From Pseudomonadales bacterium (GTDB taxonomy: Bacteria; Pseudomonadota; Gammaproteobacteria; Pseudomonadales; Azotimanducaceae), in assembly GCA_046290215.1 (NCBI GenBank), contig JBKAGC010000001.1, forward strand, positions 2,936 through 66,935: 64,000 nt of DNA, written 5' to 3'. Shown here in pieces: positions 38,582 through 39,246 of this stretch. Position 1 is the first letter of the stretch; each line of letters opens with the position of its first letter. A program made the position numbers and the translations under genes. Under the pieces are notes generated by a model that worked only from the letters and a program-made list of their open reading frames with translations, did not search any database and was not told where the DNA came from.

Positions 38582-38663
38582 TGTGAATCCCGGAGACCCA
38601 GGAATCACAACACACCGCTCGCGGTTGAGTGAGCACTAACTTAAAGTAAGCAGGAGTATGACT

Positions 38664-38825
38664 ATGCGTGAATTGAAAGCAAAAGAAATGGAACAGGTTA
38701 GTGGTGGTTCCCTATCGAACTGGACACTCTATATGCGAGTTGTCCCTTCATTTTCCAGAACCTACTTTAAAGGCGACAACGGCACCACCGGCCGCTTCTT
38801 CGGTTACCAGGCCACCCTACGCTAG
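38664..38825 (+). CDS. small secreted-peptide precursor with a double-glycine (bacteriocin/microcin-type) leader
   Basis: Not in the ORF track because it is under 60 aa. AGGAG lies 7 nt upstream of the ATG at 38664. The product is MRELKAKEMEQVSGG|SLSNWTLYMRVVPSFSRTYFKGDNGTTGRFFGYQATLR. The leader matches the colicin V-type consensus: hydrophobic at -4/-7/-12, E at -8, GG at -2/-1. Confidence 0.6.
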   Translation: MRELKAKEMEQVSGGSLSNWTLYMRVVPSFSRTYFKGDNGTTGRFFGYQATLR

Positions 38826-38846
38826 CCGACAGCAGGATCATTTGGC

Positions 38847-38880
38847 GATCATTGGGGACAGGACCAGGTGCCAGGTCGGA
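38847..38880 (+). repeat. REP-like element copy
   Basis: gatcattggggacaggaccaggtgccaggtcgga, the same element as at 40514, 40748(rc), 44289(rc) and 17114. Confidence 0.85.
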
Positions 38881-38964
38881 TTTGGTTTCTGTCACCAATT
38901 ATAGCTGGCATATATAGCGTGAAAAAAGGAAGCTTCATAGCTTAGATCTTGTTGTGGGAGAGTC

Positions 38965-39246
38965 ATGTTCTCAAGAAAATGCCCTTCTTGTTCGCAAGCG
39001 ATACCGTTTAAACACATCGCGCAATATTTAGAGCAAGAAGCACTACAGTGCCCGTATTGCTTGCAACACCTGAAGATCAAAACACTCGATTCGATCGTTA
39101 ATAGTTTGTTGATTGGGGCACTCGCAGGCATTATCGGCGCCGCACTGGAATTACCCCTGGGCTGGATCGTAACAATCGGGGCCATTTCAGCAGTCTTCTT
39201 TCAGAAATATCTTGATGTGTTCTTTTCGCTTACGCTGGATGAGTGA
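38965..39246 (+). CDS. small membrane protein with an N-terminal zinc-ribbon (CPSC...CPYC) and two TM helices
   Basis: 93 aa. Two CxxC pairs lie 19 residues apart, followed by hydrophobic segments LLIGALAGIIGAALELPLGWIVTIGAISAVFF. Confidence 0.55.
   Translation: MFSRKCPSCSQAIPFKHIAQYLEQEALQCPYCLQHLKIKTLDSIVNSLLIGALAGIIGAALELPLGWIVTIGAISAVFFQKYLDVFFSLTLDE

Follow-up and report, generated by a model that had tools for sequence, protein, structure and literature searches.

An orphan double-glycine-leader peptide gene beside a zinc-ribbon membrane protein gene in an uncultured Pseudomonadales bacterium: a candidate class II microcin-like locus

Class II microcins of the MccV/colicin V type carry a double-glycine signal of 15-18 amino acids (aa), are exported through a peptidase-C39 ATP-binding cassette (ABC) transporter (PCAT) jointly with an MFP (membrane fusion protein) and TolC, and are encoded next to a small membrane immunity protein (PMC12219008, PMC9746304). 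The working definition of the class asks for a Gram-negative protein of up to 150 aa bearing the signal Motif 1, a PCAT and an MFP encoded nearby, an adjacent immunity protein of up to 216 aa with transmembrane helices, and a secreted mature peptide that acts against bacteria (PMC12219008, PMC9746304); double-glycine-leader microcins of this kind are now thought to be widespread in Gram-negatives (PMC12219008). Here we describe a candidate for such a system in a 64-kb stretch of a Pseudomonadales metagenome-assembled genome (MAG), namely positions 2,936 to 66,935 of contig JBKAGC010000001.1 (assembly GCA_046290215.1), referred to below as the window. The locus consists of a 53-codon gene for a peptide with a predicted double-glycine leader and, downstream on the same strand, a gene for a 93-aa zinc-ribbon membrane protein. 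We consider it probable that the two represent an orphan class II microcin-like peptide and an immunity or accessory membrane protein, with export in trans. Neither double-glycine peptides nor orphan bacteriocin genes are a novelty, and they are by now regarded as ubiquitous; the modestly new element is the zinc-ribbon family that recurs beside such peptides.

Set against the working criteria of PMC12219008, the locus resembles class II microcins in its Gram-negative host, in the length of the peptide (well within the limit of 150 aa), and in a small, unmodified, Cys-free pre-peptide whose 15-aa leader fits Motif 1. A small protein (93 aa, two hydrophobic helices) adjoins the peptide gene as a candidate for the immunity protein; in some strains a toxin-antitoxin cassette intervenes. 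The locus differs from class II microcins in that no PCAT or MFP is encoded in the window or in the examined 20 kb of the sister-strain contig L011, in that the core has no sequence similarity to any known microcin, and in the zinc ribbon of its candidate immunity protein—a feature for which we found no report in bacteriocin or microcin loci in the literature searched. To our knowledge, verified class II microcin cores are longer than the 38 aa predicted here, and verified double-glycine microcins come almost exclusively from Enterobacterales.

Judging from the alleles at hand, the peptide open reading frame (ORF) is a real coding gene that evolves fast yet under constraint. An earlier note, made from the DNA letters and a list of ORFs, had described the 53-codon frame at 38664..38825 with an AGGAG at good spacing before it, and both are present: the start and the stop can be read directly, and the box lies 7 nt upstream of the ATG. 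The same note had called the gene unannotated, which is true of the track of ORFs of at least 60 aa that it used but not of the public annotation. Three pipelines (NCBI, Logan and JGI) predict the gene, GenBank lists it as the hypothetical protein ACE37D_00170 of the Pseudomonadales MAG (MFN3235452.1; 70-kb contig), and one of its alleles is named "bacteriocin-like protein" by JGI. Moreover, the gene stands at the same site beside flgH in related metagenomic contigs (L001-L006, L011 and L012). The five DNA alleles encode four proteins, and all five are intact, each 53 codons long. AGGAG keeps its 7-nt spacing in the alleles of the window, L002, L006 and L011, with five of the seven spacer bases varying, and an alternative ATG upstream, at 38658, is missing from the L002 and L011 alleles. 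Three allele comparisons gave ratios of non-synonymous to synonymous change (NG86 dN/dS) of 0.35, 0.22 and 0.08, and L002 differs from L011 by 12.5 synonymous and 4.5 non-synonymous changes (binomial p = 2.6e-5). The excess of synonymous change, the conserved AGGAG and the missing alternative start together argue that the frame is translated from 38664. The earlier note had named a lack of conservation in related strains as a reason to give up its proposal; the ORF is kept in those strains, with purifying selection acting in frame. The peptide ORF is also the most divergent stretch of its neighbourhood, with 87% DNA identity against 95-100% in the flanks, and its dN of 0.08-0.10 is the highest locally (0-0.03 for the neighbouring genes).

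The leader appears to be of the type recognised by PCATs, with cleavage predicted after G15. Its sequence, MRELKAKEMEQVSGG, agrees at eight of 15 positions with the leader of colicin V as quoted in the earlier note, which had stressed this likeness. It also matches Motif 1, i.e., <M...R-x-[IL]-x9-G-[GAS], the pattern by which a 2025 study defined class II microcin signals, in the form M1-R2-E3-L4, nine residues and G14-G15 (PMC12219008). By itself the leader motif is weak evidence, because a loose regular expression (hydrophobic residues at -12, -7 and -4, an acidic one at -8, G at -2 and G, A or S at -1) is expected 0.3 times by chance in each dinucleotide-shuffled 64-kb window. We additionally searched the 1,923 six-frame segments of the window with a hidden Markov model (HMM) built solely from three independent leaders of peptides that lie beside C39 exporters in other organisms. 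The ORF at 38664 was the sole hit (20.7 bits, E 3.8e-5), its alignment beginning at the ATG, and the runner-up segment reached 3.7 bits.

The product of the downstream gene had been described in the earlier note as a 93-aa protein with two CxxC pairs and two transmembrane helices. We find the cysteines (C6xxC9 and C29xxC32), an acidic tail and, around residues 43-61 and 63-80, a pair of hydrophobic stretches compatible with two helices, so that the protein would sit in the membrane by a C-terminal two-helix hairpin; an AlphaFold2 model was unusable, with a predicted local distance difference test score (pLDDT) of 50. The dN/dS of the gene is 0.14-0.22. The best-conserved parts of the family are the two CxxC knuckles and the C-terminal KYxDVFFSL tail, both predicted to face the cytoplasm. 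The family is rare: a word-index search of 5.8 billion clusters returned a same-lineage relative (P0003, 94% identity) and otherwise only P0004 (62%), P0005 (57%) and P0009 (41%). Scans of genomes and a first scan of metagenomes with the zinc-ribbon alignment gave zero matches, as did scans of viral contigs with both the peptide and the zinc-ribbon alignments. A second metagenome scan returned five archaeal-type proteins of ~200 aa encoded near ribosomal protein L15e-like genes; the only feature in common was a zinc knuckle, MFKRKCPSCA, and we set them aside as unrelated.

The closest described family is TIGR04104 (cxxc_20_cxxc), which has no assigned function and of which we found no mention in the literature searched. 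Residues 5-87 of the 93-aa protein align to positions 2-88 of this 93-position model (26.3 bits, E 7.4e-6). The likeness extends to length and architecture—each of the five members of our family has two CxxC pairs about 20 residues apart, then a C-terminal half that is hydrophobic—and the matches are full-length, yet the five score about 26 bits each, far under the curated cutoff of 45, which makes the family a distant sister group of TIGR04104 at best.

Homologs of the zinc-ribbon protein occur in loci that do carry an exporter. In the Tara Oceans contigs L008, L009 and L010 (homolog P0005), the order is a 57-aa peptide, MRELNTNEVLEVSGG-LPVPVVLVGAVAFRHIVAPAAASFAGGAASGVMTAWLERLSS, the zinc-ribbon gene and a Peptidase_C39 gene. 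The C39 ORF begins 9 bases past the zinc-ribbon gene, its first 121 residues correspond to Peptidase_C39 (Pfam E 2.3e-25), and its N-terminus keeps both the cysteine motif QAEAAECG (QxxxxECG) and the histidine motif HFVV. In L013 (homolog P0009; the source dataset of this locus type is SRR24908225), two peptides with GG or GA leaders, MQELKFEQVEDVNGA... and MKELSTQEMTEVNGG..., are followed by the zinc-ribbon gene and then by a C39-type ORF, VIYQSEAAECGLACLAMV..., whose N-terminus was recognised by eye from the QxxxxECG motif, without Pfam scoring. Thus, a leader of the form M[RKQ]EL...V[SN]G[GA] recurs upstream of the zinc-ribbon homolog in both of the other loci with readable upstream DNA, and the place of the family, in two independent lineages with both flanks readable, is between double-glycine peptides and a PCAT. 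In double-glycine bacteriocin loci this slot classically belongs to the immunity gene, and its occupation by the zinc-ribbon family supports the reading of our pair as a bacteriocin locus. The second L013 peptide passes the cutoff of TIGR03949, the class IIb lactobin A/cerein 7B model (25.4 bits against 21.5), and the L008 peptide narrowly misses it (19.4). The window peptide shares the leader type of these class IIb loci; unlike them, it has a hydrophilic and aromatic rather than a Gly/Ala-rich hydrophobic core, and its locus holds one peptide gene, not two.

Such recurrence also bears on the idea that the two genes are unrelated neighbours, i.e., that a small cytoplasmic protein with a leader-like N-terminus by chance happens to lie beside the zinc-ribbon gene. 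Chance would not repeat the same adjacency, with the same leader, beside a rare family in two other loci, and the leader profile singles out this ORF at an E value that nothing else in the window approaches (3.7 bits or less). What speaks for coincidence is the chance rate of the loose regular expression, the fact that every curated model scores the peptide under its cutoff, and a toxin-antitoxin cassette that can separate the two genes (both taken up below). On balance we regard coincidence as very unlikely.

In the explanation that we favour, an orphan class II microcin-like peptide with an immunity or accessory protein, the 53-aa product would be a pre-peptide whose leader is recognised by a PCAT and removed after Gly15 during export. 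The 38-aa peptide so released—unmodified, cationic, aromatic and Cys-free—would act on other cells; of the two roles considered, that of a narrow-spectrum antibacterial toxin is the likelier and that of a signal the less likely. The zinc-ribbon protein would form a hairpin in the inner membrane, with zinc ribbon and tail toward the cytoplasm, and would most likely serve as the immunity or self-protection factor of the producer, or else assist the system. The exporter that flanks the zinc-ribbon family elsewhere is absent here, and because the locus has none of its own, any export would have to take place in trans, through a PCAT encoded elsewhere in the genome. The physical linkage of the zinc-ribbon family to double-glycine peptide and C39 loci is a direct observation. 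The conservation of the peptide, the fit of its leader and the slot occupied by the zinc-ribbon homologs thereby lend support to the proposal of the earlier note, an orphan double-glycine peptide with a small immunity-type membrane protein, in which the immunity role is a putative one.

Several observations weigh against this reading. The curated models tried all leave the peptide outside their families: it narrowly misses the cutoff of 15.7 bits of TIGR01847 (bacteriocin_sig), a double-glycine leader model of 15 positions, with 13.1 bits for the window and L011 alleles and 15.4 for P0002 (P0001 was unlisted), it stays under the thresholds of Pfam MccV (PF17508; 12.7 bits against 27, over the leader only) and Pfam ComC (PF03047; 12.4 against 20.4), and it gives zero hit with Pfam Bacteriocin_IIc (PF10439). 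TIGR03949, likewise, matches it over the leader alone (residues 3-15, 12.8 bits). Furthermore, the predicted core is unlike those of the exporter-linked loci. The earlier note had counted a Cys-free, aromatic-rich core of 38 aa with a net charge of +4, and our recount agrees (four R plus one K minus one D; no Cys; eight aromatic residues). This core is hydrophilic, with a grand average of hydropathy (GRAVY) of -0.42 and 13% Gly+Ala, in contrast to the hydrophobic, Gly/Ala-rich cores of the exporter-linked peptides (GRAVY +0.85 to +1.14, Gly+Ala 30-45%). Finally, the zinc-ribbon protein retains 57% (L008) and 41% (L013) identity to homologs from loci whose peptide cores are unrelated, and its best-conserved parts are predicted to be cytoplasmic. 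This argues against strictly toxin-specific immunity and would still allow a generic role, either protective or associated with export.

The last two points would suit a signalling peptide, the mature 38-mer being a pheromone-like signal and the zinc-ribbon protein a sensor, an anti-sigma-like transducer or an export accessory. ComC and BlpC are exported pheromone-like signals of this sort in Gram-positives. A hydrophilic, cationic core is not membrane-active in style, and conserved regions that are predicted to be cytoplasmic and are kept across unrelated peptides are easier to reconcile with a generic accessory or transducer than with specific immunity. The weak matches of the peptide to the ComC and BlpC models point the same way, but they span the shared leader alone and lie far under cutoff. 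The pair has no linked histidine kinase or response regulator (FleS/FleR, at 7.2-9.9 kb, are flagellar), and in L008 and L013 the peptides found with the zinc-ribbon family show matches to class IIb bacteriocin models; we therefore hold a signalling role to be quite unlikely.

The surroundings of the pair count against the microcin-like interpretation as well. As the earlier note had stated, the window lacks a C39-peptidase ABC exporter: neither a Peptidase_C39 gene nor an ABC exporter nor an HlyD-type gene is present among its large ORFs, tblastn with two C39 N-termini found no C39 remnant in it, and no PCAT or MFP was found in L011, a 20-kb part of the 63-kb contig of a sister strain. In the contig with the 62% homolog P0004 (L007), whose upstream end is truncated, no C39 gene follows within 400 nt and no tRNA was found downstream; this locus is either uninformative or itself an orphan. 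A simple scan of the + strand upstream of the peptide gene recovered no sigma-70-like promoter. In L006, L011 and L012, moreover, a RelE-like/MqsA-helix-turn-helix toxin-antitoxin cassette separates the peptide gene from the zinc-ribbon gene, so the two need not be co-transcribed; this also weakens the case for an immunity role. The cassette is a presence/absence polymorphism among near-identical strains, and in L011 the 14-nt sequence ATTTGGTTYCTGTC, which is the 3' arm of the hairpin in the intergenic spacer, is duplicated, with one copy on each side of it.

Drawing on these observations, the pair could alternatively be a decaying remnant, in which the exporter was lost, the peptide is neither exported nor of any extracellular function, and the zinc-ribbon gene is retained as a 'cheater' immunity against the bacteriocins of neighbours. 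Orphan or 'cheater' bacteriocin-immunity loci in this sense are exemplified by pneumococcal blp loci in which the BlpA exporter is disrupted. Our locus is like them in keeping a peptide gene and an immunity-type gene without a cognate local exporter, and unlike them in having no exporter pseudogene and in belonging to a different taxon. An exporter that is missing here yet adjoins the zinc-ribbon gene in L008 and L013, a position where the synteny of the flagellar cluster breaks (see below), the cassette inserted between the two genes in some strains and the locally highest dN of the peptide would all agree with decay. By contrast, an ORF that is intact in all five alleles, a synonymous excess (dN/dS down to 0.08) and a conserved ribosome-binding site are unexpected of a dead gene, and change that is fast but constrained is what bacteriocin cores typically undergo. 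We thus judge decay unlikely.

Beyond the orphan microcin-like reading, a wider proposal can be put forward, tentatively and as one that we would not expect to hold in full: the zinc-ribbon/two-helix family may be an unrecognised generic part of double-glycine bacteriocin loci in marine gammaproteobacteria—an immunity factor of broad action or a PCAT partner that faces the cytoplasm, as opposed to a protein of toxin-specific immunity—with the window peptide as a new hydrophilic, cationic and aromatic microcin or signal, exported in trans and selected without an exporter of its own.

Relatives of the core were also sought more widely. An exhaustive profile search of 1.84 billion representative proteins found none outside the peptide's own cluster, and a word-index search with the peptide returned two close clusters and nothing further. 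Three long repeat proteins matched the peptide profile spuriously, through the summing of weak VSGGSLSNWT-like matches in immunoglobulin (Ig)-like repeats. In one such adhesin-like protein (P0007, 1576 aa), VSGGSLSNWTA opens each Ig-like repeat and nearly reproduces the leader/core junction VSGG/SLSNWT of the peptide, which explains why repeat proteins appear as false profile hits. A likeness of residues 3-47 to c-type lysozymes was obtained by phmmer against PDB (2eql_A, horse milk lysozyme, residues 11-55, E 0.018; 5xuw_A, E 0.02), with about a third of the aligned residues identical by eye. It is most likely due to chance: the positions of the catalytic Glu35 and Asp52 are occupied by Pro and Arg, and the match was not recovered in the search of 1.84 billion proteins. 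A partial ORF at the start of L008, ending in GFHFGYQWASR and thus resembling the end of the peptide (GRFFGYQATLR), was dropped (tblastn E about 1).

The coordinates of the locus are collected in Table 1. The intergenic spacer that separates the pair has a folding energy of -54.7 kcal/mol (z = -3.3 relative to shuffled sequences), and its hairpin may attenuate or stabilise the transcript. The region between the divergent flgH and peptide genes presumably holds both promoters. A scan of the + strand found no canonical terminator near the pair, and Rfam gave zero match in 37.5-40.5 kb. As a separate observation, the fully conserved part of the divergent region contains a perfect 7-bp inverted repeat, CCGGCAA-ACCC-TTGCCGG (38419..38436), with a T-rich run after it. 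The repeat lies ~35-50 nt upstream of the flgH start on the other strand and could be a regulatory site or an element of the flgH 5' untranslated region.

Table 1. Position of the peptide and zinc-ribbon genes and of associated features; coordinates refer to the window unless a contig is named
Feature	Coordinates	Strand	Remarks
Divergent intergenic region, flgH (-) / peptide gene (+)	38386..38663	.	91-100% identical among strains; variable patch 38506-38590
Shine-Dalgarno box AGGAG of the peptide gene	38652..38656	+	7 nt before the ATG
Double-glycine-leader pre-peptide gene (predicted)	38664..38825	+	53 codons; ATG 38664, TAG 38823-38825
15-residue double-glycine leader MRELKAKEMEQVSGG	38664..38708	+	Predicted cleavage after G15
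Predicted mature core SLSNWTLYMRVVPSFSRTYFKGDNGTTGRFFGYQATLR, 38 aa	38709..38822	+	Downstream of G15
Imperfect hairpin between the two genes	38853..38899	+	Stable, without U-tract
Toxin-antitoxin cassette	L011 9312..9912; L012 4310..4910; L006 842..1135		Insertion site corresponds to window ~38886-38899
Zinc-ribbon protein gene, 93 aa	38965..39246	+	GenBank MFN3235453.1, ACE37D_00175; 139 nt past the peptide gene

To the left of the pair lie flgH-I-J-K-L on the minus strand and, farther left, the FleQ/FleS/FleR/FliF part of the flagellar cluster; to the right follow an iron-type alcohol dehydrogenase gene (39359..40504), a CFYUT selenoprotein gene and unrelated metabolic genes. A FlgI search of 185,579 species representatives placed the nearest genomes among uncultured Pseudomonadales and "Candidatus Azotimanducaceae" MAGs (87-88% identity), and no homolog of the peptide, the zinc-ribbon protein or C39 was found near flgH in the FlgI flanks of 71 related genomes. 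In the nearest relative (L033, 1..6000), flgE-flgF-flgG-(thioesterase)-flgH-flgI are contiguous. In the window, the flgH junction is broken, its place is taken by the pair together with non-flagellar genes over at least 25 kb, and flgB-G are absent. The GC content of the pair is 0.46-0.49, against 0.52-0.54 in the neighbouring genes. The break in synteny and the slightly low GC are compatible with a module acquired at a point of rearrangement.

Three of these neighbours deserve separate comment. A ribosomally synthesised and post-translationally modified peptide (RiPP) reading through the adjacent iron-type alcohol dehydrogenase was rejected: the daptide dehydrogenase model gives 56 bits against a cutoff of 300, the enzyme is most similar to generic 4-hydroxybutyrate and lactaldehyde dehydrogenases, and L008 and L013 have C39 in this place. 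The selenoprotein gene (40796..41911, minus strand) is split into ORFs of 245 and 119 aa that form one gene across an in-frame stop (...SYNECFY-stop-TTAHAS); each half gives a hit to NF041238 (AhpD_rel_CFYUT alkylhydroperoxidase-related (seleno)protein), with E values of 2e-92 and 1e-32, so that the product is a probable selenocysteine-containing protein, and gene callers make the same 245/119-aa split in related contigs. On the flagellar side, FlgK (32651..35692, minus strand) is unusually long at 1013 aa, and FlgE of L033 (32..3040) has 1002 aa with internal repeats, which suggests that the hook and junction proteins of this lineage are enlarged.

The locus extends a known system and does not overturn the current understanding of it. 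It adds a microcin candidate from an uncultured, marine-type member of Pseudomonadales, with a core that is unmatched among 1.84 billion representative proteins. A peptide that purifying selection maintains with no exporter encoded nearby is also relevant to the question of how orphan genes for bacteriocins and immunity are retained. Moreover, the recurrent link to double-glycine loci provides a first testable functional context for the zinc-ribbon family—and perhaps for TIGR04104.

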